DNA of 64,000 nt from Botryllus schlosseri (GCA_051294905.1 CM119372.1:9364001-9428000); one strand, 5' to 3'. Positions 3,301 through 54,300 are shown, counted from the stretch's first letter. Numbers and translations: made by a program. The notes: generated by a model from the letters alone, not told the origin.

Positions 3301-6300
3301 ACCTGAAAGCAGGATGAGGGCATTCACCGAGCATGGTAGCGGTGATCTTGTGGTAGGTGCTGCGCAGGTTCAGCTTCAAGCCGTTTGGTGGTTCTGTGAC
3401 TACTTTGAGGGAACGCTGCAATATTCCGATTGGAAATTCAGGGATGGATTCTGTCGTCAGCCATAATCTGAAGGAAAGAACATTTCAAAATGTGAAATTC
3501 GCGGAGTGAGACGCGGCTGCGGGATCGCCTCCTTTGAAATTCGCGATTATGACATCACAAGAGCGCCAGCGCTTCATGCCGTACGGCTTTTCTCGATTTT
3601 ATGTTGGAAAAATGTAATATTTGAAGTCGGACCCAGAGGTGGTCAGTAACCAAGTACTTACTCTTTTCAAATCCTCGCCTACTTGTACTACTTACTCAAA
3701 CTGTTAGACTACTTTTACTTTTACTACACTTACTACTTACTACACTTTTGAATTTTGCAAAGAAGAAAGTAATTCTGAGATAAGTTTGCATCGCTGTAAT
3801 GATCCAATTCGTCGCGATAACTGGACGAAGTAGTCCCTATATCACGGCAACTGATGTATTCTCAGAATTGTACCTAATTGTGGTGTCATTTTGAGTTTGT
3901 GTTGATAAAGAACCGAGCGATTCAGGCAGTTGCCGCCACCGACTGATTGCTATAAGTATGCGATACAAGACCAAATCTACAATTGAATAGTATATTCATA
4001 TTGAAATGAACCCGAATATTTTCGGCTGACACTCGTCAGGGGTAATCGTCAGCAACTAGCATAGAATTGGAAAGAAGATTGTATATCAACAATCGTATCA
4101 CAAAATATGAGGTCACCAGCAGCAAGACCAAATCTACGTTTTAGAAACAACTCACTCGAGTATATTTCGGTCGTTCATTTTCTGCCTTGACATGTTTTGG
4201 AAATCTCTATTTCCACTCGTAATCGAGTAGAAACACTAAAGATTACTTCTACTTTTACTCAAGTACCAATGATGACTGCCGTCAAGCGAAAATTACAAGT
4301 TAAAAGCGATTATTCTCAAACCGCACCTAAAATCTGGATGCGGTTTCTGAATCCTTTCCAACGCTTTTTCCAAATCCTTGAGCCACTTCACGAGAAGATG
4401 GCAGTTTTGTAGCATGAGCCACTGTCCCCGGGCAATAGCAGTCTCTAGAAACTGCAGCGCCACCTTCTCCTGACCCTGACCCATGGCCAGAAACTTCAAA
4501 CGGTTACCGCCGAATCCAGACCTGCGAATTTGCAATGAAGGGCAATGTAATTTGGAGCCTCAAAGTACCATCAGCAGCGCCAACCTTTCCGCCAATTTCA
4601 GCAGGTCGGAAGCCGGGTCCGATCCGGGGCTCAGGATGAAGACGATGGGTGAAAACGGCGTGCTCTGCTCGTAGATGGACTCGAAGCTGATGATCGGGGG
4701 TTGGACGTAGATCTCGCCCACAGTCTTGATGACGTAGTTGGTGATGGCGCGAATCACGCGGTCCACGCGGAAACATCTGGATATGGAGATATTTTTTTTT
4801 AATACAGTAAAACACCTGTTTTTAATTCATTTTACATTTAAATATATATATCTTCAGAAATAGCAATAGTTTACCAAATATCATACCAATACTACGTCAA
4901 AGATTTCCCATTGATTATCTCTCATTGTGATATCATAGGAGTGTGGATGATTAGAAAATCTCAAATATGTACGGTACCTTTTATGTGACCACAAAGAATA
5001 TACTGCTAGTTGTCCACCACTGAAATGTCATTTACACAAACTTGCAAAGTTTTTTACCACAAATGTTTTGGTAGTAAGTAGCAAAAAGTAGCGAAACTAT
5101 AATTTTCTTACCGCAAAGGATCATATAATTTGAGTCCTCGAAAAATCTTCACTCACTACTCGACCCGAATTCCTATCCCACTTAAATACTTTATTCAGAT
5201 TCAAGCGCTTAAATGACTGTGCCCAGCCCCATCATTAAGCGATGGAGGGATGGAAGAGATCAGCTCTTCTTAAAAATACGAAGATTTACACAAAAACACA
5301 TACCGTAAAAGAATGAGTCGGTCGAAATCCTTCAGCTTTTCCTCATATTTTCCAGGGAACGAAATCGATTCCGGGCTGTCGTGATCGAACCACTCCTTCC
5401 AAACGCGTTCGTTACGCTCGATATCGTCCGGCAGAGACGAGAATATATCGGGGGACATGTTCGCCAATTCGATGACGTCCTGCCAGCCCTGGTCCGGAAT
5501 CCAATCGAAAGGCTTGCGGCGACTATAACGACATGATCGAAAAGCTATTAGTAAGGAATATCGATTTCACTTTGCACCAATGCTTGAGACTATATTCGGA
5601 ATATATCCTGATGACATTCGACGAAGTAATACCTCCATTTCAAGAGAATGTATTCCCAGCATCTGTATCAGTCAAATTAACATTCGATAGGACTATCATG
5701 ATAACACGTACTTGCAGTGAGAAATATGGAAAATTGAGTGTTACGTGGTTAACAGACTGGTATTTGCGTGAAGGATAAAAATAATATACACATTCGATTT
5801 TGTAAAAGGTTCAACATACACAATATGCCATGGGTGCGTTAAACAATAAAATCAGTCTGGACTTGGCATCTGTGTCTACGAGACGGGCCGCCATGGTATG
5901 TCGAGCTAACCAGGCAGTTCAGTAACTTGAAGCCCGGTTTGTTGAGGAAAATTATGCGGTGCAGCAGAACAGCATACACAAGGAATCTCCTGGAGTCAGA
6001 TTATAACAATTTCAGAAATATGGCAGCCGGCAACAGTCAAATGATCATCGACAACATCACGACGAGCAACCAATTGCGTACTAGATCATCATTCGACTGC
6101 ATGGATGCAGAATAGAAGAGAAATTGAGGAGACATATCAAAAGCACGCCATCACCTGCTCTTTTCGAGGGCGATATTTCCCTTGTAGAAGAAGTCCAATT
6201 CTTCCTGCTTGATCTGTCCCTGATCTTGAACCAGCTTGATTGTCATTTGGAACGAGAAGAGTAGCTTGTGCTTTTCAAAGAGACCTGACGTTCAGAACGG

Positions 6301-9300
6301 AATTAGCAATGTGAGTATCGGGTCTATCGAATCTGTCGGATCACCATGATAGACCAGATGCTGAATGATTATATATTGACAATAGGAGGTGGTTTGTAAT
6401 GAAGTAGTCCCATCTTTTTGGAAATGCATGTGAGTTTACCGACTGCAATGCTTACATGAGTGATACTGTTTTAGATTACTTCTACTATTACAGTAGCTCT
6501 TCAATTTTGTAAACTACAAAAAGCTATTGGATAGATTCTCAACGCTTTTGAGATTGAAATTGCTACTAGAAAATCAAACATCTGCATCACAATCGTGACA
6601 TATAACTTAAATATCACAATCTGACATATCGAACTCGCCTACCGACACATGCAGCATTCATTTTTATCGCTTCCTTCTATGTTATCCTTTCTCTTGTCCA
6701 GTGTGCATGCCACTTATTGTGGGTGTCTGATTAAAAGACTATTTTAAGTCATTTTCGCACCCTCCTATCTTTTCATTATATCGAAATCGTGAGGTGGATT
6801 GATTTGATGAAAATTTTACTGAAATGATAATGATAATTCATAAAAACGAAAGCTATTCAGCGTCAGTCACTGATTGTGTACTGCAAGTTGGCGTGGTTTA
6901 TTGCAAAATAAAAGTCCTACATCGCTGTTTCTTTACAAAAAAGCCCAGAGAATGACCCGATGAAAGACGAGTGCAAGGAAGAGAATGGAAAGAGCGAGGA
7001 AACGTCAAAAAGAGAGACAGCCGAAATATCAGGTTTGAAGACGGTTACATCAGGCATTAATTCGAGTGATACCAATAGGTTGAGGTGGATGTTAGATTGA
7101 TAGACTTTACTTAGCCGTTTCGACATCCTATCTGTTCGTTACATCGCATTGTGTCTCCCGTGTGACATCATAAATTGTATGTCTTAGGCAGATTAAAATC
7201 ATAGAACATCTGGTTTTGATCATGATTATGGAAGTCAGAATTAAGTTTTTTACGTCGGTTTACGTGAGTACTTAGAAAAATACGGTTGTCGGCTGCATTT
7301 CGACATACTTTCAGCCTGCCGATTACTCGACTGGCACTAGAACTTCGCAGGGTAGCTTCTACTTCAATAGCAGTGACGAATACATCGACTTTATCCAAAG
7401 CACTTATCAAGCCCACAGCAATCAACACCCGACCTGTGCAAGCGTAGTTGTAGATGTTGTGAGTCAGCGTGTCGATGATGTACTTCAGGCGCTTGTTGAG
7501 ATTCGCGTCCGGCAGGCTTTTACGCAACGAGAAGTCGAACACGTCCAGGAACGAAGCCAGCGAGAACTGGTACATGTTGTTGATGATGGCCATTTCCGAG
7601 AGGACGAAAAACAAAATGGCGCCGCGACGGGCCGCGGGACGGTATCTGAAGAAACGGGTCGTGATTGCATACAAGAGGAGGTCAAATTATCTCGCAATAT
7701 ATTACACAGCTTATACACTCACCCATCTCTGAGTTTATCGATGTCAACAGCGGTGACGGCAGCGAGTTTCAGCTTTTCCGTCACTTCTGTGGCCTTAGAT
7801 TTTGTCTCTTCCAGTGTTTCGATCAGCTCGGTGTTGTCCAACATGTTGCCTGTAACGCAAAGATGGCATATAGTATAAAATTTGTCGCAATATTCAGGAA
7901 AGTGGAACTGAAGAAAAACTAAGGTTCCATCACGTTCAGTGAGTTGTTATCAGCACTTTTAATCTGCCTGGAATCTGTTGTACCAAGTCGATTGGCTAAA
8001 ACGTGGCAAAGGCTGTTGAAGAAGTGCCAATTGTGCGTGGACAGGTGAAATGGGTTTCTCAGTGTGCTACATTTAAGAGCTAAGGTCAGGTGGACTAACA
8101 GAATGGCCAACAGAGCTGTAAAATCACAGAAACACGCATATACTGACTCTGCATGGAGGGTTTTGAGATAGAAAACGCACACGACACAACGCGCAATTTC
8201 CTGTCAGGCATTAAAGGTTGTTGTGCATGGACCGTTACCGAATTTTATAGATAAGTTTCGTCATGACATTTACCAATTCCTAATGACACAGTGGGTCTCA
8301 CCATTACTACTGGAAAGTATAAGAGCTACCCATTGCTTATGTATACCCGGTCTATTGCCAAAAAGGTTCCACAGCAATCCGGTGAGAGACAGCCTTTAGT
8401 TACAGTAACATTCACGAGCGTGAATCAAGTCATACGCGGACCAAAGCAGCACCTTTAGAAGTGGCAAGCTCTCTCAGGAGAGAATCTTCCAAGTCTTTTA
8501 GCAACTTTTTATTTTCTGACGTCTCCTGAATGAGACGCTCACGCTGCTCTTCCAGCTCTTTCCTCTCAAACTTGACAATAACGGAAAGCAACTGATCTGA
8601 AGTAGTTTGAAAGGGAATTTTTAAAAATTGATATCAACTCGATGGTTTATAATCGCAAATCGTAAACACCTCACCTTCCAGCCCTTTCAAGGTGACGGTA
8701 TAGTTAATGACCATGGCTTTGCCAAACACAGCTGGTGAATATCGTGGATTGGCCAGCTTGCTGGTCAAGTACAGCTTGAAATTCGAGTCGTAGTCCACCT
8801 CCTTGTCGCCTGTAGAATCAGCTCGATTAAGTCGAAGGAAAACTATGATTTAAGTCGATCTGAGCCAAGGTAAGTACACGCATGGGATGTTTAACGCACA
8901 TTTTCAATTTGAAATTAACGATACTCTGCTTTATAAGACAATCTTGGAGGTAGAGAACTTGAATATTCAGTTGAATAATATATGTTCATATTGATATAAA
9001 CCCAAATATTTTCGGCTGACACTCGTCAGGGGTAATCGTCAGCGACTAGTAGACAATTCAAAAACAATTTGTATATCAACACTCGTATCACCAAATATAA
9101 CTCTGATTTCTACTATTGTGTTGTAATTACAGTTCTGATATTACCGAGCATGACAAACTCGCGTCCCGCGTCGCCCTTGATGTTTTTCTCCAAAACATTG
9201 TCGATGACCGGGTCGATGTACTCGTCAACGTCCTTGAACAGGAAGGGAAACCCGTACTTGATGGCCAGTTCGAGTTGCTTCAAAAAGTCCGGGCTGTTGA

Positions 9301-15300: not shown

Positions 15301-18300
15301 TGTAGGTCAGTGACGAAAGCGTCGTGTTGTCATGACAAAATCGTTCACGCGTCTCCGGGTGAAGGCGAAAAAAATCTGGCAACGGTATTTCGGAAAATGA
15401 CGTCTGAAAATCGATACTCGACTAAGTGACAAGAATTGACGCGCACTTAAGGTTGAGCATCGATCTGCACTTAGTTGAGTAGAGAATCGCAGTTGAGTAC
15501 TACTTTGTTAAGGAGAAGAATTGGCCTCAGCCCTAAGATATCGTACTTTATTTGCAAATTATATTACCATCCTTTTAACGTGCACATTTCAATGAAGTAG
15601 ACTAATTTCCAGCTAATCCGTGTCATATCTTTTTTGTTAACTGGCGATGTCTTTATCCGAACTTTACCATGGGCCCTAGTGGAGATGGAAACGAGTGGAA
15701 CAAGCATCCCCGCCCCTTCCGGCGTTACTGGAATACGATTTTTGGCCATGTCGAGTGACGAAATTTGCCACCGTAAATGCTACTATTTCCAACTCGGCAT
15801 CTACTGGTTGGAATTTAGCCAAACGATTAGGTAACCTAACGATTTGACAACTAAGCCGATGAAATTTGAAAAACATGTTTTTTTTAACCTGATATCGTAG
15901 ATTTTGGAGTAGTCAAAGAGCGTTACTACCGGCAGCAGTCCAACACATAATGCAATATTGTAGCTTTGATTTGAATAAAGATAAATAGAGTATCAGTGGA
16001 ACCTAAAGTGGCAGGGAGAGTAAGGCAGCGGAACAGATCATACCGCTGCGACAATAGCTTTTTTAGCGGCGCTTGGGAGGTTTGAAGCATCAGCAACCAG
16101 GATGGAATGCGGATATCAAAGCAGCAACAAAACCAGTTATTTGAAGAGCTTCTTGGAGGTAAATTTTAGTGTATTCATTCTTAGTTACACAAAGATGAAC
16201 GAGATGAACCAAATATTATGACAAAATCCTACCTTGTTTTGCTCCTCAATTTCCAGAGCCTTGGCGGAAGCGAGTTCTTTCTTTTCCACGGCGACCACTC
16301 GCTTTGAGGTGATGTCTTCCAGGAGTTCTTCGCAAGCTTTCGTTTTTTCGGTAACAGCAACCTATTGCAAAATCACATTTGAACGAAGGGAGCATTTGAA
16401 ACGATATTCATTTAGTTTTAGTAGAAGATCAAAGTCGATCAAGGACTAATATAGAACGGCGGGTTGGTAATTCAGGCTCAGTCGGGCACACATACGGAGA
16501 AATATTGTCCAAGCTGCTATATTATGTCCCAAATTAGGCCTGACATGTCAGCACTTCGAACCTAGCATTCCAATTTCAGTTGAGTTGGAATTAAAATCAC
16601 GAATCAAATATATCTCATATACTCAAATATATTAAGACGCCTGTGGCTGTGAACTATGATCTCACAAAGTATGAGCGTCATCTCTGCTATTTTAATGCCA
16701 AACACACAGAACCTTTGGTCATGATGCTACTGTTTATTGAGGTATCGTTCATTATAGATTAAAACCAACATAAGTCAAGATATGCTTACCTTTTGCACAG
16801 CAAGCTTTTTATTCAGCTCCTCCAATTGCTCGGAAGCTTCCGATAGCTTCATGAGACCGCCCTCCAATCTCTCGCACATTTTTAAGATCTCCTGATCTTT
16901 CTTGTCGAGCAATCCGTTGTAGCTGGAACGATATCACGTATTTTACTGCTTGTGACAGTATATATGCTCTGCGGTTTTATGCAAAGTGCAGCTTACAAGT
17001 ACCGTACGTGAAATGTGCGATCAAATCATATTGCATACAATGCTTTAAATTTCACCTGGTAATGAAATCCAAATAATTCTTCGGCGTCACGTAGTTGTTT
17101 CTTCGGAGTTTTTGTGCAAAAAGAGTGCTGTAATTGCCCACCGACTGATGGACAAACACGATATGTGCTACCACCTAGCAAAATATTCACACAATAAAAC
17201 GATTGAAAAGTATATTCATATTGAAATGAACCCGAATATTTTCGGCTGACACTCGTCAGGGGTAATCGTCAGCAACTAGTAGAGAATTGGGAAGAACATT
17301 GTATATCAACAATCGTATCACAAAATATGACGTCACCAGCATGAAATTTCGAATGAGAGAGCGATAACGAAAGGAAGGACTCGAATTGACTTGGTGAAGT
17401 CAATCGATCAAACTCCCACCTTAGCCTACAAATATCATAACAAAAATAGATGAATCTGTTAAAAAGAAGCATGCACACTGCACAGTTGCACACTCCATGA
17501 GAAATAGTCAACAGAATATTTGAAAAATGGGCAGGCGTTGATGAGGCATGTTACACGCCGGGGTTCAGACTTCACGTGAGGTTGTTGCGTCTAAATCGAT
17601 CCGGCAATCTCAACACGCACACTGGCATTTATCCACCAGAAACCACCCCAAACTGCTGTATTCAACGCAATATCCTACCTGATCAACATGCTCTTCTGGG
17701 ACCATTTGATTTTCCGACAGGAACGAAGTGGCAACCGCGTACAAAGCCTGCTCGGGCCAGGGCATGAACCAGTCGATGACCGTATTGTTGACCATGCCAG
17801 GGAAGTTTCTACATCTGATCCTCAGCAAATCACCGACGGGCGACATGGCAAGCACGATGTGCAGGTTGTCTCGGCATTTGCTGACGAAAAACTGCCAGAT
17901 AGCCTCTTTCGCTGGGCCGAATCTGAAACGTAAACAGCCAATCACTGACGCGTACCTACCTATTTGTTGTCACATTATTCATTCTGCATCAGTCGTGAAG
18001 ATACATCTTGCTATTTCAAAAGTAGCCACCTTCAATGCTAAAAGTATGGGCCACCTCAACCTAATCTACTTTTAGAAACATATTACTGAAATACTATTCA
18101 TACCATCTATTTTCCAGTTCCACTTGAAGTAGCCTTGAGATGTCTTCTGAATCACTACAACTTTGAATTGAGTAGAGATCTATAGCATTACCTATACCTC
18201 TACCTGAGAAGCAACACCGACTAGTTCAACAACCTCAGGTTTAATCTCATCAATGGCAATGTCTTCTAAATGTCGCAAAGTCAACAAAACTTGAATTTTG

Positions 18301-27300: not shown

Positions 27301-30300
27301 ACGGGGGTTCATGATGGTGCAAAGGGGGTCCGCGAAGACAAAGAGGTTGAGAACCGCTGCCTTAGAACCTATAAATAAGAGACACGCACATTAAACAAGA
27401 CCGAATGAGACGCCCACCTCGTTTCGGCCACCCCCAGCTTTTCCCATGGCTGCCACATATCCCATGTCGCGCAGGTACTTATAATTCAGCTCTTTGCCTC
27501 GATCGTACATGCCGCCCTTTTCCAAGAGCAGCTTCAACAGAGCGATAGGCTGCTGCGTGCCGTACGTGTCGACTTGCGGCATGTTCATGTCGTCCATAAA
27601 CACGATGAGGCGCTTGCCGGGCGGTGGGCCGTAGGTGTCCTTGGTACGTTTCTCAACATTGGCTTCGAAGTTTCGCTGTACGTCCATGGAAGTCGTACGC
27701 GATGAGAAGTTGATGTGCAGTTGGAGGTAGGCGTCCGGATCCAGGTTGCGCAGGAAATTCTAGAATAATCGTAATAATCAGAATTAGCGACAAACCGATT
27801 ATATCGGTTTGCTGATAATATCGCCGTGACAGTACAGAACTTCCATGTCACAACAAACAATATATTCATGTTGCCAAATTTATTCCACTCCAAGCTTTTC
27901 GGCTGACCGACTGACTGACTGACCGAACATCCGTAAATTATATAGATAGAATTTTGCCGTTGTGACGTTAACGGCAAGTAAACAGACTCGCGAACAGCAT
28001 ACAACAGCGGAGAGGTAACGATATAACGCAGACAATATTCACAGAGTATAGAGATGTTCTTTCTGGCAGCAGAGGATTAGCTGTTGCAGCTCTGCTAGTC
28101 ATTATTATGCCAAAATTCTTTCTATATTTCTAAATTCTCTTGGTAAAGTCTGTATATACCTGAATAGTGGCGGTCTTGGATGTACCGGTTTCGCCGACGA
28201 GTACGACGGGACGTTTGATTTGCATCATCCTCTCCAAAAGCCACGTCGTCCGCGTGGTATCGATGGTAGGAACGAGAATTTGGTTGTAATTCAACGCAGG
28301 GTCGTGGACGTATCTGCGATTTCAAACGTTGTCCATGAGACTGTCCCAAATAGGTTGCAAAATACAGTGACAAGTGACGAGAGAGAGTGACAGAGAGTTG
28401 ATCCAGTATCAATACTGATTTTAATATATTAATTATTTCATATATATATTAAAATACAAAGCTTTTTGAGCTGACACTCTTCGGGTAATCCTCAGCGAAT
28501 GAGGAATTTCAAAAACTCGAGCTTGGCCAATTACGATGGCATAGTTACATCATAAATCACTACTGAATGTAACAACGTTAGCGATACAAGTCCTGTCTTG
28601 AACGAAATGTTTGTAAAGAGAGAGAAAGAGTTTTATTACTTTGTCGACCAGATATGAATAATATATATCATATTGAAATAAAGCCTACTATTTTCGGCCG
28701 ACACTCGTCAGGGGTAATCATCACAACTAGTAGATAATTGAGAAGAACAATGTATATTAACAACATATTTGGCGATACGTTTTTTTTTATACTAGGTTTT
28801 TCTCAATTCTCTACTAGTTGCTGACTGAGTCAGCCAAAATAATTCAACAAATAAAATAAATGTGTAAAAAAACAATAACACATATCTAGCTTGATCAGTA
28901 TTGCATGGTGCCGTGATAAGATCATGACCATCTTTGTGTCAATCGTAGCCGGGCTAATAGATTGATGAAACCAATGAAGTCATAATTTATAGAATATAGG
29001 AAGAAATGTGAATGACGCCAAAGTTTTTTGCCATAACACCTTTTCGTAATCAGGTACGGACAAGTAAAATTCATGCCCGACTGCTCTTTCGGCAACATGT
29101 TTTTGAAATTCATGGCAAGATGGCGGGGACATACTTTGGAACAATCTGGCTCCATGGAATCCAGGCCGATTGCTCGACATCGAAGTGATAGTCGTACAGC
29201 GTCTGGTATCTTGAGGGAAGATCGCCTGCTTTGGCAGGACTTTTGTCGTCATCCTGCATACAAAACGCAAACACGCTTATCTTTGTTCGTCGCGAAACAC
29301 GCTCAAACCCGTACCTGAACGGCCGTCATGGCGGACGCCTTTTTGACACATTCGTCAAACTTTTCTCTACCGTCTTCAAGAAGAGACGCGCCCACCGACC
29401 AATAGAGACATTCCAGGAACAAACACTCCAACACCTTGGATAAATTGGACACGATTTAGAAATAATCACCAAAATTTGTCACTCGGCATGCTCAATCCAC
29501 TTGTGTACAAAGACATCCAAGAGTACATGAGTGACATACAGTTTACGTTTCTTAGGCAAAACTAGATCTAAAATACTTAATTTTTTACTTACCTGGACAC
29601 CACTACTAGTAATTATAATCGAGTAAAGACATAGGACACTACCGCTGCTGCTTGAGTAACAAAGATGACTACTTTGACCACCTCTTATCACCATTCCCTG
29701 ATAAATGTAACCGTCACAAGGCGATAACCAATGCGGTAGTCAAGCCACCCCACAGATTGTAAACCATTATTAAAAAGCAATTGTCCAGCTTACATTGGGG
29801 TCGTGATTTTCCATCTTGAAGTCGGCCAGTACCGCGTTCAACATCATGCACAGCTGGGTGACCATATTCAGGTTGGTCTGATGGACGATTTTCTTGAGCG
29901 GTTTGCCTTGCCTGCCGTCCAGCACGCCCTCGACCACCTGCAAACGACCAGAATGTCATGACAGGCGAATTTAAAGTCCCGACGGTGATTTACGGAAATT
30001 TATGAAATACAAGAGACTGGAATGAGATCTTGTTGTGACCCTTCTATGATAACCTACTCATCGACAGAACGTTTTCTAGGTTTTTATGCACTAAAAGCGT
30101 AAAGTCCTACAACAAAAATAAACGTTAAACACAAGTAATTCAGGAAAACATGTGCTACTCCTGGAATACACTGCGATGAGTGATCAACTAACAGACGGAC
30201 AAACAGACAAAACGATTACATGCAGAAATGAAGCTAAGGTATATTGACGACGCAGTTATCGACCAACAAGGTATACATAAACGGTCACTTACGTAATCAA

Positions 30301-33300: not shown

Positions 33301-36300
33301 GCAAAGCTCTCATGAGCACGACCTCCTCGTGCAGGTCCGGGGAGCCGCGCTTCAGATCGCCGGCCATGACCAGGACGGCCTTGAGTGCGCGCAGACCGAA
33401 ATCGTAGTGATGCTGCTTGGACAGCTGTTCTTTTGCGAGTTTGTAAAGGACGGTCATCTTTTTCGCGAGGACTTTGGCGGTCAGGAAGCCCTCGGAGAAC
33501 AGCATGATTTCGCAGATTTGTTGGAGATCGGGAACGATGACGACCACGGGCCTGTGCGGGTAGAGAAAAACAATCAATCATTTGTTCAGCGGTTCTATTT
33601 TCTCATCCATCATGTGCAACGTAGGACAAAAGAAAAAATGTGGTTTAATGAATAGATTTTAATGGAATTACATATTCATTGATAGATGGTCTTCGGCTCC
33701 ATCACTAAATATTTGGTCTACTAAAGGAGGGCGATATTTTTTGGGTACTGAAGCAATTTTACTTCTTGTATGGCACGTGTCTCTTGATCAGTTACATTTA
33801 GTGTTCTTATACTGTCCAATTCTGTTAAGTCTCGGTCACCGATGCCGTGACGCTTACTATTTGTGCTGTAAGGAGGGGATTGAATGGATGACCATCCTGT
33901 CATGTCATCCTGTCCCCGCCCAGTGCCCATGTTGATTTGACAATATTGCTTTCATAGTTTGGTGATGAGATAAATTCAATACACGATCCACTTATCAGCC
34001 TGCGATCTATCTAAGCTGCGACTGGGCAGACGTGGCATAGGCCCTTAAAAACAGCGGGCATTGATGGATTTGAACCCCAATCTAGTGTTTACTTTCCGTC
34101 AAAACTAGAAGAGAATCTCAAACTCTATTGCGTTGTTCCGCATGAGATGATTGAAGACGATAATTTGGATTCGAACGCGGTCAATCGTCACATCTTCGTT
34201 AACACAAACAGCAACCCAAATTTCCTCAACATCACATCGAATTACCGGAACAGGGCCTTTACGCTTTCCGGCAATTCTGTACGGCCGGCGTAACCAGGAT
34301 TCATCGTAATGAAAATGCCCATCCTGTCGTCGAGGGCGATTTCAGTCCCTTCAAATTGGAATCGTTTCAAGTGATGCATCAGAGCGTTGCGTATCGTTTG
34401 AACCTGGAAGCGTCAGTGAATGGAAGTTAAATAGGATTTTACCGAAGAAACGATTGAACTGTACCTGAGAGGACACGACTGACAGGACAGACGCGTCGAT
34501 CCGGTTGAATTCATCGAAGCAACCCCAAGCTCCGCATTGCGCAAGACCAGAGAAGATTTTACCCACGGCCTGGAGATAAAACAAAGTAGTACTTATTACT
34601 GACCACCTCCGGAAGCTAAAACAATGACATAGCAAATCAAAAACGACCTACCTTGAAATCCATACCCTCCCCGCAGTTGGTAACGACACAGAGCAGGCCG
34701 AGAGCTTTCGCCAAATCCTTGGTGGTCTCTACAAACAGAAGAGTAATGGAAATCCGCTATCCAACGTTGCTTTGACGGCATATTTTACCGGTCTTTCCTG
34801 TTCCAGCCGGGCCGGCCGGTGCCCCTCCCAAGTACATCGACAAGGCTTGCGTCAGAGTCAGGTAGATACGATCCGTCAGGGGTGTGATGACGAGTCGACC
34901 GTTCAAACCCATGTATTCATAACTGTGGATTAAAAAGAGACATTATGACGTGAGTACATCTGATATTGTAAATAATTTGACTTGACTAGACTTTGAATCG
35001 GGGTTGGTAGTTGGAGACTGATTTGGGACGTTTGTCGATAGTTGGGAGCAAAGGCGGTCAGAATGGCCAGTGCTCATATTGGCAAATTTATTCCATTCGA
35101 AGCTTTTCGACTGACTCTCATCAGGAGCGAACGTCAGTAAATGCTATATTTCGAATTTGATGAACAGCATTTACTGACGTTCGCTCCTGATGAGAGTCAG
35201 CCGAAAAGCTGAGAGTGGAATAAATTTGCCAATATGAACGTATTGTTTGCTGGAAATGACTAATTGCGCAATTTTCGAAAATATATTCAATTGCCGTGAT
35301 ACGGGGCTGTTTGGCCTGCTTATTATGCCAATTTCAATGTTTTGAATAATTACGTGGGATAAATATTATTTTTGTACATTAACTCAAACTTCGCTACTGA
35401 CTGTATGTGGTTAGGATTTAGAGTTAGAGTCGCACTTTCCAATTCGTTCGAATAATGAGAACGAGTCTCGACAAAATGTTCCAGGAACTCAGTCAACTCA
35501 CCCATATCCGAAAGTGCCGGTACACTGCCTGATCATGAGCTGGTCCGGCTCGCGGTCCCAATAGAACCGCAGCTGCGATTCCCACTCGAATTCCTTGGCG
35601 TCCAAAATGGAGTCTCGCACAAAGTTGTCAATGATATCGCGAGCGTGAACATCGATAATAAGCACTGAAAATGGTGGATGAAACGATATTATCGACAAAA
35701 AAAATCGGGCACACATCGGAAATAACAAAACAAGGCCAGGATAGGATTTACGAGACATGATACGACTGCATTTGAGCGAATGAAAAAATTCCCGTATACT
35801 GTCTCCGCCATCGAGACTAGATAACTACGCTTGTGATTTCGGCAATAGCTATTCAAATAACTGGTTCATGGTACAGAACTTAAAAATTGCTTCATCAAAA
35901 CGTCCATCGCAATTATACATTTATTAATTACATCTGGACTTCTCAGGCGTCTCACATCAATCCTTATCGGTACACCAAAGTAATAACGACACGCGAATTT
36001 CATGGTCTTTAATTCAGATGGTCGCACCAGGAAAGAAAAGGACGTAGTGTATTTTGTCCTTGATGTTTTTTGCGGCATATACACCGACTCATGGACACAC
36101 ATACACACGATCTGCGCGTATGCATATCATGAGTGCATGATGTGCATATGCCGCTTGACAAGGAGGGTGCAGATATAGCCTTGTATGGCTTTCTAAGTCT
36201 TGCACCACCTCTCCCAGTCATGCATGAGCGCCAAGCAGGGAAGTCATGGATACCACTTTTATTAATCAGGTCTTTGGTCTGACCCGGCCGGGGATCGGAC

Positions 36301-39300
36301 CCACGACCTACCGATCAAGAAGCCGGACGCTACACCATTACGCTATCTTGTCGTACTTTTGCCATATTGGTTTTACTTCCGAATGCATTTGAGTCCCTTT
36401 AGTGTGCCTAACTAATGATAAGAGCAGAGTTAGTCGGGGCCAGTAATAAAGCACATCTGCTTTTTCTGAGTACTATTACTTAGTACTTACTCAAGTATAT
36501 ATGAGTCGCGGCTACTCCAACTCTTACTTGACAGTTTTCAGTTTTTCGGCAAAACCTGGCTTACTTTTTTACTTACGTGGAAATCGTTGCTACTACTGCT
36601 ACTTGAATAGAAATTGATGACGTTCTACTTCTGCTTAGTAGTAGTAACAATGATGACTAGTTTGATCACCTCTGCGTAAACCGCACTAGAACGTTCTTCG
36701 AGTTATGATAATAGCAACATTGTGATAGATGTTGTGATGAAAGAAAAATCACTCACCGGAATTGAATTTTTTCCTTTCATTTTTCCCCAGGGGTTGTTGA
36801 ATTTTCGTGACGAGCGCGTCAATCTGCCCGTGCATCTGGCCGGCGTACTTTTTCATCGCCAGCTTGTCGCCTTTTTTGACCTGGTAATACAGACCGTAGA
36901 AACTCGAAACATTTCCGAACGAACGCCGGACTTACCCGTCTGAACACGTCTTCCACTTCCCAAGTCCACCAGACTTGATTGCTGGCCAGGACAACCATAC
37001 CTTGGTACTGCAACATCCAGTCAACTCGATCGCTGTTGAAGAAATGCAAAAAATATCAGAAAACGCCGCACAAACAACGAAGCAATGGCTTTATTAGAGC
37101 ACTACAGTTGAACGGCTGAACATAAGCAGAGGCGGCTAAAGTAATTAGTATTGCTTCTCAAGTAGAAATAGAAGTAATGGCGTGGATTTCGATTAATTTA
37201 TTTGAAGAGCTTCTTGGAGGTACGGAACTTCAATATACCATTGAATAATATATTCATATTGAAATGAACCCGAATATTTTCAGCTGACAGTTGTCAGGGG
37301 TAATTGTCAGCAACTAATACAGAATTGGAAAGAACGTTATATATCAATATATAAATAGAAAATGAAAGGTCTGCAATGCACACAAGTAGGTAGTTATATA
37401 AAGTATATTTGGCTGATGCATCCTATACTTTTAGAAGTAATTCAGAGACGGGCGATTTTTAAAATTGCAACATGCATCTTCGCGACAACGCAAAGTGACT
37501 GATGACAGTACAAATAGAGCAACATTCCAAAATGTCGTCCACTACAAAGATACAGGTGCCAGGTCGTTATCATATTTTCACTCGCAAGAAGTGATAGAAG
37601 CCAAATCAACACTGCTAACTACTTCACAAAAGTAAAAAAGGGAATTTGCATCAAAATCTGTTTGGTGAAAGTGGAATCAGTATAAAAACATAGCCATGTA
37701 AGTAACAGTGCAAGTAGGCAAAGCGAGCTTGAGTATTCTGAAAAAGTAGAAGTTGATCATTATTCACCTCTACTAGGTAGAAGAGACAACGTGCTAAAAA
37801 AACAGGCTCACATATTATCGCAGTAACTGAAGATGGCTTCTTTTGTTATCCTTCGGTTTGTGCTTCTCATTTCGTTCAGCACCGCAGTCATCCAGTCTTC
37901 AACGCGGCCTTCAGCAGGGACAGGCTTGATGAAATCCATGACCTGAACAGGATACAATCATGAAATTGAGGACTGAAAAAGAGGTCGACCGACTCGGTAT
38001 GAAAGGGTTCGAGATTAAGACTGAAGACGGATTTTTTCAAAGAAATCTTGACTTGGATTCGGCTTGACAGTGAGAAATTCAATGAATTTAGAAGTACGGC
38101 CATCCACGGCAATTCGAGTATTGAATGTGAATATTTTATTTGTGACAAATATGGTTTTCATACTTTCTTCCCATTGTAGCATCCTCAAAAGTCCAAACAT
38201 ATTGCAGGGAGACCAGGTAGATTCACAGAAAAGAAATGTCTATTCACAATTAATCGAGTTGCGTTATAGTGACAAAGCGTCATGCAGAAGTGATGGTCCA
38301 AAATTGCCATATTTTGTGTATCTGATAGTGTTATAACTGTGGCCACAAAAAATATCCATACTTGAACTTAGTACGTGATTTTCCATGTATAATGCGCTAA
38401 ATTTTCACGATTTTTTGCCCTGAAATCGGGGGGTGCGTATTATACATGGGAACAACACGCTTGAAAAAAAATCTCCCTCGTTAAAAAATTTGAAATCACA
38501 CCTTTCTTCATGTTTGTTTCCAATCGTACATCACTTTCAGCCATCGCACCCAGCAATCCGTATTATCAGTGTAACGCGCTGCCAATTAGCGAGAAGCGTG
38601 TTGACAATTAACTAGAGTCGCCTGCACAGCAAGCGATCTCCTGTTGAGTTGGTTTGCCGTTTGCACGCGAACGAAATTAGGTCTTTCATTGATTGCTGCA
38701 CGCTAGGGTTGTCCATAATTTGGAAAATCTAACAAATCCTCAGTTGTAATGTCATATTCGATAGATTATTGATAAAAAACGACACTGAGCCTGAAAGAAG
38801 CTCACAGAAAGGCCGTTAAGATTTCGTGCAAAGCGTTTGAAAGTAGCTGCCGAAGAATGGGCGTGCCACCGACCATAGAATGGCGAGAAGACTAGTAATT
38901 AAGAAACCACGGCTCTTGATTGGATAATCGGCTATGCTTCAATGACCACGTCAGCAGCAGCTTGCTGATTAGGTGAACAAGGAGTCTGCTACTGGCGGCG
39001 ATTCTGAAAGCGCATTGTATGTAGGTTGACAGATAATGATTTAGGATTGATTCAAGGTATCTTGAGGTACGAAATACATGATGTACAAACAACAGCTGCT
39101 TCACAAAAACGTCTAAAGCATGACCGCTTCATTGTGAAGGAAACCGCTTAGCCTATATGCCTTGTTTTCAACGAGGGAAAGCATAGGCGCTTATGCAAGT
39201 GGCAATGGATTCCTAGTTTCAGAAATAATATATCATTATTGAATACAAAGATAAAGCTTAACAATGACACTATAAGTTAGGTGATCTTATTGGGCTCAGG

Positions 39301-42300: not shown

Positions 42301-45300
42301 TCAATTTATTTCCGAAGATTGTACCTATTTGTAGCTTCATTAGTAATTTTGCATCAATCGAGAGGATACATCATGCAATTTTAGAAGTAACCGCCGCGAA
42401 TTAAGTGCTAAAAGCACAAAACCCCTCAAGAAAATATAACTACTTGAATACTTCTCAGAGCTTTCCTTTTCTACATCCCCTTGCGGTAATTTTGACACGT
42501 TTTGGAAACAGCTTCTTCTACTTGTAATTGAGGATCAATTTACAACACTACTACTTGAATAGCAGCGCAGGCTATTTTGACCGGGCAGACATGGGCAGAA
42601 CTGATCCCGCACAAATCTAACACAAAAGCAAACAAACCTCGGCGATCAGAGACAATCCCTTCTCCCAATTTTGCACGGAAGCCAGGAAAGGCCCGACGAA
42701 TCTGGAAGCCGACATTGACTGCAGATTCATTGCGTTGTCGTCCAGGATTTGCAGGACTTCATCGATGGCGCCTGATGACAATGAAAGCGTCTTATAAATG
42801 TCAATAATTTTACACTATCAGCGACAAACCGTACCGAGAACATATCCTCTCTCTTGAGTCCCTTTGAAGTATTTCAAAACCGTAAATTTCATCGATTCCC
42901 ACGTGTCGACGACCTGGAAATTATCGAAAACGTATAGCAGATCGTCGCATAATTAATGTAGACTCGAGCGTACCTCCTTGAGACCCTTTTCTATGCTCAA
43001 TTCCTTCACGGCCGACGTTACTATTTCGTTGATCGTGTCGGCAAAGTTGTGCAGCTGCATCGTGAACAGGTTGTCCAGAGTGAACGTGTCCGGGTTCATG
43101 TCGAAGTCTTTGCCGGTTTTCGCCATCAATTCCTTCCAATGCCTGGAAAACGTTAGTGGAAAGGTCAAAGGGGAATATATATATGGCAATGCGACAATTT
43201 AATAGTGTGGTTTCCCCTGAAGAGTTTGATCCTTGATCATTCAAATTACAATAGTCAAACATGGGAACACATTTCTCATGGTTAACACCGGTGTGTCCAG
43301 CACAAAGCACACATTACTAATTCTAGTAATAGTGTACCTTATGTTCTGCATATTGATTCTTTTTCGGATAACATGATATATATCACACAAGCTTCACGAT
43401 AATCATAATCGCTTAGCTTATCTCTGTATTCTGTCATATTCACTATATACGAATCTAAAATCTAAAATGAAAAACTGCAACACCAGCAAGTTGGGAGCAT
43501 TGGTACAACTCGGCCTATGATATTTTGTTCGCTACCATAATACTTCAGGCGCAGGAACAGTCCTAGTGCCGTGCATCAAATAATATCGAAAACTTATTTG
43601 TTACCTGTCCCTCAAAGCTTCATTTTTCAAATCCAAAAACAGCGGAATCGATTCTTTGAATTCCTTCATTTTGGCTTCCAGATATTGAGCGGGCGGCAGA
43701 AGCTTGACAGGTTTCGGCATTTTACGTAGCTTTTTCATGAAGCCGTCGATGCCCTCCATCAACTGATAAAACCAACCAATTACTTGACAAATACACACAA
43801 ATAAGATATTTCCCAACCAATTCCTGAGACTAATCAATCCATGTTGCACTTCAGTGCAAAATTAATAAACAGTAATCAACCCGTACCTGATTGACGTTCA
43901 AGTTTGCCCAGAGTGTCTGGGACCATTCCTCCCTGGCGTTGGCCTGTTCCTCGTACAGCTGATACACCATATCCAGCCCCTTCATGTCGTTTTGGACTTT
44001 GAAAAGGTCGGGGTACGCCGTGATCGAAAGATCGAATAGTTTTTCGGCATTCGTCAGCTCTTGTCTGGAATAAACAAATGAAATATAATATAATTTATCA
44101 AAAATCAAACTTGATTGATAAGTTCGGTCATCCGTATCAACGAAAATCTGGAAAATTCTTATGAAAAATATTCCCACTCACAATAAGGATTATTGCTAAT
44201 GTGTCTACTGAAGTTCTGTGCATACAAGAGTCTCTTCGAATAAGGATTATATTAGTATTTCTTGATGTGTCTGACCGTGAAAATATGAGCCGCACCTTTC
44301 GCTTTCATATTCGGCGAGTTCCTTTTTGAAGTCTTTCAATATCTTGAAGCCCTTTTCTAAATCGGAACCGACGGCGCCCGGGCCCTCCTCGCGAAATTTT
44401 TCCGAAAACTTTTCGAGCTGCGTCTGGAAATCGGAAATCTGCTCCTTGGTGATGGCGGTGAACTTCAGTTTCACTCCGGTCAAGTTGACGTCGGTGATCT
44501 GAAATGGCGCAAAAACACAGCTTAAACCCAGTGGTAAATCGATAGTTTTCACAATACCGAGTGATATCACGACTTGGGTCAAAAATTAAGGACGGCCAAA
44601 CACTCTTAAGTAGAAAGGAAGCGAATTTCGTGAGCTGATGACTAGAAAAAGGTCAACACTTTCGCCCCCAGTCTTTTGCAGTCATTTTGGTGAGGTAATG
44701 ACTAAAAAGACAATTTCACCTCGTCCTAATCACCGCCTCATTGCCGAAAATATGGACATTCTTGCTGAAAATAAAGACAAATTTGAGAAATAAGGGCATT
44801 GTAGTTTCATAGACAACCGATCTTCAAAATAAGGACAAAGGACGGTATGGTAACCCTGGGTATAGATTTTTTTGAGAGTATATAACATGTAATTCGCGGC
44901 ATTTACAAAAATCTGAAGAGCTTCTTTGAGCTACTAAACTTCAATATACAATTGAAAGGTATATTCATATTGAAATGAACCTTAATATTCAAAAATTCAG
45001 GCCGGGGATGTCATATTTGGTGATACGATTGTTGATATACAACGTTCTTTCCAATTCTCTACTAGTTGCTGATGATTACCTCTGACGAGTGTCAGCCGAC
45101 AATATTCGGGCTCATTTTAATATGAATATAGTTTTCAATATACAAAAATGGTTTCACGAAATAGAATACAAATACCTTCGGTAACATACCTTTGCGTTTA
45201 GGAACAGGTCATCCCACATCTGTTTTATATTCCCCTCCAACTCCAATTCCTCTTCCGACACTGCGATGTTATACATTTGAATCGTGCGGTATCTAGTGAA

Positions 45301-51300: not shown

Positions 51301-54300
51301 CAATACTCAGCTAGGAATATTGTAGTCAACCTCGGTTGGACTCGAACCCATAACCCATTGGTGTTGCAGCTGTGGATCATACCACTACGCAATCTCGCCA
51401 CTCAGATATTATGAATACAAGTTAGGCCAAAGTGTATACCAATGCAGAACAACGTTGTAGCAAAAGGATCGGGACATGATTAAGTCTGCCACATCCTGAA
51501 TGAAGTATTGTTGCATTATATGCGACAGTGCTCACATTAGACTAACATGAAAATTCATGATAGAAACTCAGAATAAGACAACACTAGTCAAATACCGTAA
51601 TAAAGAAGAAATTAGTAAGGGAACTAGAAAACCTTTAACAGCACCCAGTAACAGGTCAAAAGGCACGTGATATAAAGGCAAGACAAAGGATTAAGTTGAA
51701 TTCAATCAATTTCAGTCAGATTTTTTCGGTCGCGCTTTAGTGAGCTCGGTGTGTGCCTAAAAAAACGTTCAAATATCTGCCCGCCTCTTTCATGTACTGC
51801 GCCAGGATGTCGTTGAACTTCTGCATCATTTGAGCGTTGATCGATTCTCGCGAGCGGATGTGCTTGAACTTCAAGAGCATGTCGAAAGCGCCTTCGGCGG
51901 ACCGTAGCGTTTTGAAAGACTCGTCGATGAAGCGTTTCGCTTCGCCTGAAAAATCGGCGCGCTTGTAGACTCGTAGTAATGGGAAACGGCGAACAATAAA
52001 TCTAAATTTTTTAATATTTAAACGAATATTTAATTTCAGACAGTTGAGGTAAGTCGCGATCGGCAAATCGAGAAAAATCTTTGTCACAGTGGAACACGGA
52101 TAAGATCTTCGCATCGCAAAACTATTTTCCTAAGCAATCGTTACCTGTTTTGTACCCCAACCATATCGAGCCGGATATGCGACAACTGATATCACATCGT
52201 ACAGCACACTCTTACGGCTGGGTTTTTAGACTACTTCTACTTCTAACAGTTTTACTCACTTTTTACAATTCGGATTTTAAAAGCAGAAAGTAGGCTACTT
52301 GTGGGATAGGTTTGCATACTTTTCATCAGTGAAACTGTCATAAGAACAGCGTTGAAACAGCCACAGCATCATGGCAACTGAATATATTTTAGAAGATCCC
52401 GAGTAGTATCATCAGTCATGTTGCGTTGGTCCCAAAGATATATGTCGAAATTTCGAAAGTAGCCACCTCCGTTCGTGTAACTACTATACAACCCCTCGAC
52501 CAAATCTACGTTTTTAAACTACGTATTCCTTCCATTCCGGCCATTCATTATCTACTTCCACTTGAAATAGTTTTCAAATGTCTCAGAAATAGCAATTTCT
52601 TGTTGTACGGTACATTGACCAACTCTACATGTGACTTATCATATTTCCATGGATCGTAGTCAGGAGAAAATAGCCGCTACGTACCTTCAATAGCCTGGAC
52701 TTCCCGTTCGAACCATTGCATGACGGATTTCCACATGCTCAGCGATTTCAGATCGAACGGATCGACGGTGATGTTCTCGATGGGCTTCACTAAACCGTCA
52801 ACGCGCACCAGCACGTCTTCGATACGTTTCGGATCGCCAGTAACAGCTTTCAATTCGGGACCGAAAATGTTGTAGAACTCTTGCAAGACCTAAATTTGGA
52901 ATGATGATAAATTTTGAATCGAGCGATGCGGCAGAAGTAGGGAATGTCTGGTTGTTTCTGGACGGATGTCGGATATCATCATGCTGATACACCCAACAGG
53001 CCTGGAAATGCCCGCATATTCAATGATAGCCCCCCATGGTGCCTTTGCGCTTATCGACATACAACCTTTAATGGATTTTCAGTAGTATTCCTCTATTAAC
53101 ACCAAATTTTCACCACCTGACATGTAGCGTTGGGTAAAGTTTTGAGATATGAGCAAAGATTTGAGTCGAGTATTCGACTATCAATCATTAGGCTATCATA
53201 TCGTAGTGCTATGGGTGATTCAGAAAATGCAAATAAATATGTATCCTTATGTGACCATAAAATACGACGGCCATTTATACACCGCATTAAAGGTGATTTG
53301 GTATTTTTTCGGTCAATTTCATAGATCTTTGAAACAAAATACTGGTTAACCACTGCTTCAGAAAAGGGTGGTTTGTGCTAAATGTTTTGTATGCTGTAAT
53401 ACAGCTGATAATGGTTTAAAATAGGGGTAACTAACTCAAAATTGGCCAATTTTCCAAGAGGGCCAGAGGGCCAATTCGCCAAATTGGTAGGCGCCGCCGG
53501 CTATGACATAGTTGTATCGAAAGGCAGCACGAGACTGCAAAGTCACTCAATACACCGTTTCCACATCCTGCTTTCATCCAGTATATATCCCGACGGTCTA
53601 CATGCGGGCCACAAGTTAGTGTTCCCTGCTCTAAAGGCTACCACGGTGATAAGAAAGTATTGTAATGGTAATTTCAGGACTTGACAATATTGTCTCTCAC
53701 TACCAGATTGGAAGTGAATAGTATATTCATATTGAAATGAACTCGAATATTTTCGGCTGACACTCACCAGGGGCAATCGTCAGCGACTAGTAGATAATTG
53801 GAAAGAATATTGTATATCAGCAATCTTATCACAAAATATGCCGTCACCGGCATGAAAAATCCTACTTTGCGATTCTTGCGTTAGAACACTAGGGCAAATT
53901 TTAGCTGTCACTTCTAAGTATCTGGCATAACCGATCAGCTTCGTAGCAGCTGGAAAACCAGGATCTTGGAATCCAAATTCCAACCAGCTTCAATCAAAAA
54001 TCTACAAACCTGAGCCACGTCGGTCAAGTCCTGGCAGATTTGAGCCATATAGTCGGTGCGGTCGAACAACCTCTTCCTGTCGAATTCCCATCTCGCATCT
54101 CTGCCGGAGGCTTCGATTTTCGCGCGCACCTCAAAATAAGTGCTCTTCCACAGTAGAAGCATGTGCTTGGCCTCTTGCGTCAATGCCTTGATCTGAACGA
54201 AAACAAAGATTAAGATTGGCTGGTGGTAGCATAACCACAACACGTGGGCATTGTTAATACTTGATAACAATCCGACAAAGTACAGAGTCAGAAGCCTAAT

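Follow-up and report, generated by a model that had tools for sequence, protein, structure and literature searches.

The 142-bp ribozyme-bearing unit at 3981-4122 was found between two copies of a target-site duplication (TSD), and we regard it, with a probability of about three in four, as a solo pseudo-LTR (pLTR) piece of a high-copy Penelope-like element (PLE) family, inserted by a PLE reverse transcriptase (RT)/GIY-YIG endonuclease in a target-primed manner. On the best reading, the insertion represents known behaviour of Penelope-like retroelements and not a new self-moving ribozyme. The assignment to the PLEs draws on non-coding marks in the DNA, namely a minimal type I hammerhead with a palindromic stem III (motif and covariation), an optional one-sided tail, inverted truncated copies adjacent on the 5' side, and some TSDs. 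All positions refer to the window, the whole stretch of 64,000 nt of Botryllus schlosseri DNA (CM119372.1:9364001-9428000) that was analysed, and the features are listed in Table 1.

Table 1. Positions of the insertion, its host and related copies in the window
Feature	Position	Strand	Remarks
Left TSD copy	3966..3980	+	12-15 bp; final 3 bases ambiguous with element sequence
Right TSD copy	4123..4137	+	Inferred empty-allele piece in run X5 begins at 4123
Inserted unit, probably a tail-less, 5'-truncated piece of a Penelope-type pLTR family	3981..4122	-	Ribozyme sense is the dynein pre-mRNA sense
Conserved ATG (3999-3997) and first six codons, MNILFN	3981..3999	-	Frame extends through the tail where one is present
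Minimal type I hammerhead motif	4010..4053	-	Drawn from sequence; predicted cut between 4014 and 4013
Intron of the dynein heavy-chain gene, ends approximate; contains host repeat and unit	3468..4333	-	Predicted from flanking exon frames and GT/AG
Host repeat: old, non-coding, MITE-like, split by the unit	3635..4290	+	Right end approximate, degenerate
Single target motif GACCAAATCTACGTTTT in a paralogous host repeat	52498..52514	+
Longest copy towards the ribozyme 5' end, about 165 nt	17199..17367	-
Copy that carries the whole optional tail (about 37198-37238)	37198..37347	-	Within another host-family copy; no duplication
Compound head-to-head insertion	44904..45149 (copy 44913-45139)	.	Inverted piece with tail (about 44911-44989) meets a piece of 153 nt (44987-45139)
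Second-family head-to-head pair	35074..35252	.	Compensatory changes
Second-family tail-bearing piece	27832..27954	-	13-residue ATG frame

Target-site duplication at the insertion

The 15-mer CAAGACCAAATCTAC occurred exactly at both 3966-3980 and 4123-4137, enclosing 142 bp (3981-4122), and the bases beyond the two copies were unlike on either side. As the closing TAC of the repeat equals the element's own next bases too, the length of the duplication is 12 to 15 bp. In a boundary-aware search, in which the unit boundaries were fixed with a few bases of slack, the score of 15 at 3966/4123 was matched by none of 1483 random position pairs (best, 10) and by none of 132 mismatched flank pairs (best, 7). 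A looser geometry gave a score of at least 15 in 14 of 3000 random placements, and the window contained four exact repeats of at least 15 at a spacing of 100-300, including the 3966/4123 pair. These results supported the repeat as a true target-site duplication, and the original prediction of a 15-bp duplication on both sides of the unit was borne out by two exact copies whose score neither null set reached.

The unit had no terminal inverted repeats (TIRs). At its left junction, the plus-strand 3' end ...AATCTAC matched the element RNA at six of seven positions, and the base at 4122 was an extra one that departed from the family. The earlier deduction that a long TSD without TIRs points to target-primed reverse transcription was upheld, as target-primed insertion from an RNA template accounts best for the TIR-less unit.

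TSDs of LINEs usually span a range that includes 15 bp. A SINE-like RNA moved by a LINE protein (with an AP- or REL-endonuclease) would also share with the present family a fixed 3' end and a variable 5' end. Neither end of the unit, however, carried a poly(A) or simple-repeat tail, and the optional 30-40-nt tail is described, in the available text of PMC8557442, as not seen in non-LTR target-primed reverse transcription, which makes such an origin barely credible.

The microhomology at the left junction and the extra base at 4122 could be traces of double-strand-break repair, in which an existing repeat, copied as DNA or cDNA, would have been patched into a staggered break via the 6-of-7 match and a short CA/GCA overlap; so abundant a family would supply many donors. 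Random capture would not, however, favour the shared 3' boundary of the family, which is where the left end of the unit lies (within 3 nt of most window copies and at a main cluster of loose ends), and we consider this repair event highly improbable.

Host repeat and paralogous sites

Pfam AAA_6 and AAA_7 domains of dynein were detected in two of the nine ORFs scanned (25 ORFs of at least 120 aa in the window), and these predicted domains, together with the exon frames and splice signals flanking the site, place the window within a minus-strand dynein heavy-chain gene. The host repeat, which the unit splits, had imperfect inverted repeats of about 11-13 bp at the termini of several copies, degenerate at the right end of the 3635-4290 copy, and no superfamily-type TSD was obvious when its flanks were judged by eye.

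The filled copy was compared in an alignment with ten host-repeat paralogues. The target motif was present once in six of them, diverged in two, deleted in one and unaligned in one; none carried it twice, and the host consensus likewise held it once, so that a 15-mer already doubled in the host, a concern raised at the outset, was not what we found. Furthermore, the duplicated 15-mer starts with letters private to the host copy at 3635-4290, indicating that the duplication arose at this very copy. A related MITE near 52495-52515 had been put forward as the visible empty site. It did contain the motif only once, at 52498-52514, but with merely 58% identity to the host copy it is a paralogue and not an allelic empty site.

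Three ribozyme insertions (3981-4122, 37198-37347 and 35074-35240) sat within the same TIR-bearing host family, and at the latter two host sequence was lost in place of a duplication. Other repeats in the window included a 1.6-kb foldback element in two copies with long inverted arms (24422-26077 and 38696-40344; arms of 679 nt with 97% complementarity in the former), a near-perfect palindrome at 58142-58810 (319-nt arms at 96%, 31-nt spacer), and an unclassified two-copy repeat starting with TTAAGGG (14476-14622 and 19404-19550).

An empty allele in public runs

Four of the 24 public runs listed were analysed on the window; X1, X5, X17 and the cDNA run X23 were among the runs used. In X5, the variants at 3911, 3915, 3935, 4158 and 4186 all lay at a single depth of 52.4, and the variant-to-end distances gave two pieces, 3862-3965 and 4123-4217, which met the neighbouring contigs with 30-base overlaps, the second beginning exactly at the right 15-mer. 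A like pattern was seen in X17 at a depth of 2.99, with a left piece of 3888-3965 and a right piece ending at 4181. This is the pattern expected of a single contig without the unit and without one of the 15-mers. From the depth and end tables, X5 and X17 very probably carry the orthologous empty allele; we infer the allele, because the 15 joints listed of 203 did not include this one and a bubble from 3935 would also close at 3965. The insertion is hence very probably polymorphic and derived.

No contig of the second X5 haplotype crossed the insertion site. In X1, contigs free of differences spanned both junctions (3544-4003 and 4087-4388) at a depth of about 15, close to the sum of the nearby haplotype contigs (10 + 6.7), and the insertion thus appears to be present on both chromosomes; X1 is perhaps the source of the window and gives no independent support. 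The proposed check for presence and absence between individuals gave an apparently filled site in X1 and a very probable absence in the other two runs. X17, although labelled as another organism, contained the interval 3400-4600 at a depth of 2-4, and many variants in this interval were common to X17 and one X5 haplotype.

Extent of the repeat family and its compound copies

Pieces of the family were found at 13 places in the window, 11 by BLAST and two as further tail pieces, and all of them were short. The family extended over about 165 nt plus an optional tail of 28-42 nt, and the copy at 3981-4122 had no tail and was about 20 nt short at the ribozyme-5' side. Most copies had a common 3' end (in the ribozyme sense) at most 3 nt from 3981, and a tail of 15-42 nt was common to seven pieces of the first family and absent elsewhere. 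Measured from the main end, the 5' ends of the ten other pieces fell at 108-153 nt, with six in the range 139-153, and the longest piece reached about 165. Loose contig ends in all four runs showed that the family goes on to the left of 3974, into the tail, and to the right of 4121, where the loose-end consensus followed the longest copy (17199-17367) for about 22 bases and then varied among the runs.

About 25,000 contigs from X1 and as many from X5 matched the window, with nearly all of the depth on the unit. Such contig counts show a very high copy number of the family without measuring it. The letters at 4060, 4062, 4077 and 4111 set the present copy apart from the family majority, and up to 2-9% of the depth at these positions was without the majority letter, leaving room for a minor subfamily.

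TSDs were clear at two, weak at one and absent at nine of the 12 insertions tested. Besides the unit at 3981-4122, the compound at 44913-45139 was flanked by the 9-bp exact repeat TACAAAAAT (44904 and 45141; 11 of 12 when extended), which was equalled by five of 1483 random pairs; support for this duplication is moderate, because the boundaries were set by eye after the repeat had been seen and 12 sites were tested. The copy at 8936-9100 had a weak flanking repeat (9/10). The earlier statement that no clear TSDs exist at the other copies thus described nine of the insertions correctly but overlooked the compound, and the family is not one in which other copies never show a duplication. A 10-bp repeat at 50023/50178 was rejected as a TSD, as it lay 10 nt outside the boundary, overlapped the end of the element and was not recovered in the boundary-aware search.

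Head-to-head pairs occurred at 28655-28846 and 44913-45139 and, in the second family described below, at 35074-35240, and eight of the 15 joints listed (of 203) were between opposite strands. In the 44913-45139 compound, the tail was on the inverted piece only. The inverted half of one compound copy, at 28764-28850, had an internal deletion between the two CTGAC repeats and seemed to end at about the ribozyme cut position.

No long pLTR-ORF-pLTR copy was present in the window. A full PLE of this structure could have been inserted with a duplication and could then have lost its body by recombination between direct repeats, leaving a solo pLTR; this would account for the bounded length of the unit and for the intact duplication, as described for solo LTRs in the accessible part of PMC8969392, and recombination or deletion has been proposed for rotifer solo pLTRs without TSDs (PMC3846280, in part). 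As all 13 places in the window were short, however, each would have needed a full insertion and a subsequent loss. Moreover, the insertion site appears to be still polymorphic, and short inverted compounds with a duplication of their own, such as 44913-45139, are more simply made directly. We therefore regard recombination as unlikely and prefer direct target-primed copying.

A pseudoknotted hammerhead motif in the unit

A hammerhead motif with covariation was shown to be present in the family, and cleavage is predicted from it. In the predicted structure, the 5' strand at 4053-4047 pairs with the stem II loop at 4031-4025 to form a 7-bp pseudoknot. Stem I consists of 4 bp (4043-4040 with 4013-4010), the core of CUGACGA (4039-4033) and GAAA (4023-4020), stem II of a single G-C pair (4032 with 4024) closing a 7-nt loop, and stem III is palindromic (4020-4015). 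Pairing was found in 86% of cells over 13 rows, compared with 23-36% in slid-partner controls, and the covariation score was reached in one of 500 shuffles. A second family showed the same layout with two-sided changes in the pseudoknot, stem I and stem III; as the covarying changes largely separate the two families and the structure was drawn from the same sequences, they count as few events. An extra pair at the end of stem I was dropped because it failed in 10 of the 13 rows. Pieces of this second pseudoknotted family, which has a similar ATG frame, lay at 27832-27954, 35074-35252, 49612-49670 and 54447-54520.

Rfam gave no match at the gathering score over the window and two chance-level matches at 3900-4200. 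Single-strand folding gave z values of -1.39 for the unit and -0.38 to -1.37 for three core pieces, so that stability did not speak for the motif, and in the predicted minimum-energy fold the core was hidden; the folding program cannot draw pseudoknots. The loop strand (within 4053-4025, minus strand) can pair either with the upstream CUGAC, giving the active fold, or with the core's own CUGAC, giving an inactive hairpin, which makes an on/off switch possible.

The ribozyme was in the sense of the dynein pre-mRNA in eight of the ten full-core copies (3981, 8969, 17201, 23680, 28652, 37239, 49719 and 53712) and in the opposite sense in two (45140 and 50183). This bias hints that single copies cut the host transcript inefficiently, on numbers too small for significance. 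In the cDNA run X23, of which about 6 in 100 was read, 2650 of 12.9 million reads were aligned and 99% of them ran on into unlike sequence. No sharp molecule ends were seen in this library, of a kind that can lose short or circular RNA, and the two strands were similarly represented.

The predicted cut site lies 33 nt inside the 3' end of the unit and coincides with neither boundary. The insertion would thus have been copied from uncut RNA, or else the ribozyme did not bound it at the RNA level. This bears on the explanation closest to the original wording, a non-LTR retrozyme monomer, that is, a small ribozyme-processed and possibly circular RNA that was reverse-transcribed and inserted alone. 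The type I hammerhead, a length of 150-200 nt, low GC and TSDs of more than 4 bp fit the description of retrozymes in the available text of PMC7229834, a relationship of retrozymes to pLTRs has been reported (bioRxiv 10.64898/2026.07.22.740005, in part), and one X5 contig contained a joint leading back 138 bases (4115 to 3978), possibly a tandem. The six rows returned by Tandem Repeats Finder for the window, however, included no tandem array of the unit, and no window copy had the family's ends connected in the permuted order expected of a circle. The one-sided tail and the inverted pairs are marks of PLEs, and the helices are minimal (4-bp stem I, and 1-bp stem II with a pseudoknot) rather than canonical (about 6 bp in helix I and 4 bp in helix II). 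A retrozyme monomer is accordingly very unlikely.

The ATG frame next to the ribozyme

A nearly invariant ATG was located 14 nt past the predicted cut site. Its frame continued through the tail for 19 residues in one copy, and for 13 residues in a tail-bearing piece of the second family in spite of a spacer 7 nt longer; the ATG frame is thus kept between the two families. Of the four pieces containing the tail up to its far end, three had TAA at codon 20, and ATAA occurred nearby in a fifth piece, which is diverged. This TAA could be element sequence or could reflect a target preference. If it is element sequence, the frame would not be the start of a long ORF, and the master would be non-coding at this point.

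No ORF for an RT or a GIY-YIG endonuclease could be linked to the family in the window; of the nine ORFs scanned out of 25, seven had no Pfam match and the other two were those of dynein. A search by DNA pattern for the parent or its relatives gave no match in metagenome, genome and viral contig collections, a result that says little because these collections are mainly microbial.

A Penelope-like route of insertion

On the preferred PLE reading, the endonuclease would cut the AT-rich target with a stagger of 12-15 nt, and the plus-strand 3' end ...AATCTAC would prime cDNA synthesis within a minus-sense RNA that had not been cleaved, using the nearer of two start sites and perhaps aided by the 6-of-7 match; initiation at the farther site would yield the tail. 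The cDNA would reach a length of about 141 nt, ending roughly 20 nt before the 5' limit usual in the family, and repair would fill in the duplication. The ribozyme would be a passenger of the pLTR, without setting the ends of the unit. A general role of primer microhomology was rejected, as the match was found at only one of six tail-less ends and the accessible text of an in vitro PLE study reports no homology at initiation (PMC11167929).

The bounded 5' ends suggest that copying ran off the RNA at its 5' end and was not the random truncation of an element of 3 kb. As the template, we slightly favour the 5' end of a full PLE mRNA, giving run-off from an internal start site, over a short non-autonomous master. 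The original prediction had the ribozyme unit moving through RNA as an independent element. The RNA route was supported, but independence was not, because the unit is a truncated piece of a longer family, its ends lie off the cut site, and the Penelope pLTR anatomy requires a PLE protein; a short non-autonomous master may be the weaker form in which the idea survives. Observations that speak against the PLE reading include the lack of a linked RT or GIY-YIG ORF among those scanned, the TAA at codon 20 should it be element sequence, the nine of 12 insertions without a duplication and the TSD of 12-15 bp, which is longer than the 8-10 bp given for rotifer PLEs in the available part of PMC3846280.

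More tentatively, the family as a whole might be a dedicated non-autonomous mini-Penelope of about 200 nt, comprising a pLTR with the pseudoknotted hammerhead and the tail and with a frame closed at codon 20. It would be transcribed and copied alone by a PLE protein acting in trans, and would exist as dispersed monomers, not tandem retrozymes, at very high copy number and still segregating. If this doubtful proposal were true, the family would be a PLE-dependent analogue of SINEs, and its two fixed 3' ends would record internal initiation in vivo.

The single case adds one more PLE-type insertion, and its value is as material. Given a very abundant family that is polymorphic in part and whose empty sites can be recovered, thousands of events could be tabulated for TSD length, both start sites and the 5' limit. 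Such a table would test within genomes the internal-initiation model, which comes from one in vitro study, and would show whether solo pLTRs arise from direct run-off copying rather than recombination.

Comparison with known systems

The cited sources are represented here by the parts of their text that were available. Searches found no literature on such a Penelope/hammerhead family in tunicates or ascidians, and titles and opening lines of abstracts revealed none on a run-off origin of solo pLTRs. PLE pLTRs with an adjacent inverted truncated copy and a one-sided tail of 30-40 bp were described by Craig et al. (PMC8557442). Arkhipova et al. (PMC3846280) reported first codons lying inside the pLTR, found TSDs of 8-10 bp as well as solo pLTRs, and verified an empty site. 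Cervera and De la Pena (PMC4209133) described widespread single-copy minimal hammerheads, which they attributed to PLEs in truncated form, and dimeric PLE hammerheads were reported by Lunse et al., as cited in PMC6765202. Schostak et al. described an internal promoter at the transcript start and mentioned a 34-37-bp repeat (PMC2377424).

The present family resembles the pLTRs of endonuclease-positive (EN+) PLEs in its type I core, short stem I, palindromic minimal stem III and widespread single copies (PMC4209133, PMC8557442, PMC3846280). It shares with them, as far as those texts describe it, the optional one-sided tail of 30-40 bp, the adjacent inverted truncated copy, the TSD and an ATG near the ribozyme. 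It differs from the EN+ PLEs in that the TSD is 12-15 instead of 8-10 bp, no ORF was seen, and the ATG frame is possibly closed at codon 20. Helix II is also different, with one base pair and a 7-bp upstream pseudoknot in place of the 7-8-bp hairpin of the PLE hammerheads described in these sources.

Frangieh et al. observed in vitro that RT initiates at two internal positions which delimit the tail, and that uncleaved RNA serves as the substrate (PMC11167929). The element of that work, PAc (Poseidon of Anolis), is like the present family in having two 3' ends about a tail length apart downstream of the ribozyme, in the copying of uncleaved RNA and, in the text available, in the lack of RNA-seq reads ending at the cut site (PMC11167929). 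In the present family the start sites would follow the ATG by about 19 and 60 nt, whereas they lie 111-118 nt into the ORF in PAc (PMC11167929). The 6-of-7 primer match at this insertion is likewise unlike PAc, for which initiation is known in vitro, while it is deduced from the DNA in the present case.

The non-LTR retrozymes of animals are likewise non-coding, short and related to pLTRs, with a type I hammerhead and TSDs of more than 4 bp, according to the portions available (PMC7229834; bioRxiv 10.64898/2026.07.22.740005). Retrozymes are, however, defined by tandem units and circular RNAs, whereas the present family consists of dispersed monomers and inverted pairs with a one-sided tail. 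As for the ribozyme itself, pseudoknots and a one-pair stem II are already in print for other hammerheads (PMC3088659). The one-pair case there, in the text available, is a metagenomic type II motif, while the motif described here is predicted to be a type I hammerhead, has a stem III of the dimer type and belongs to a retroelement of an animal, and its pseudoknotted one-pair stem II makes it a small structural variant of interest.
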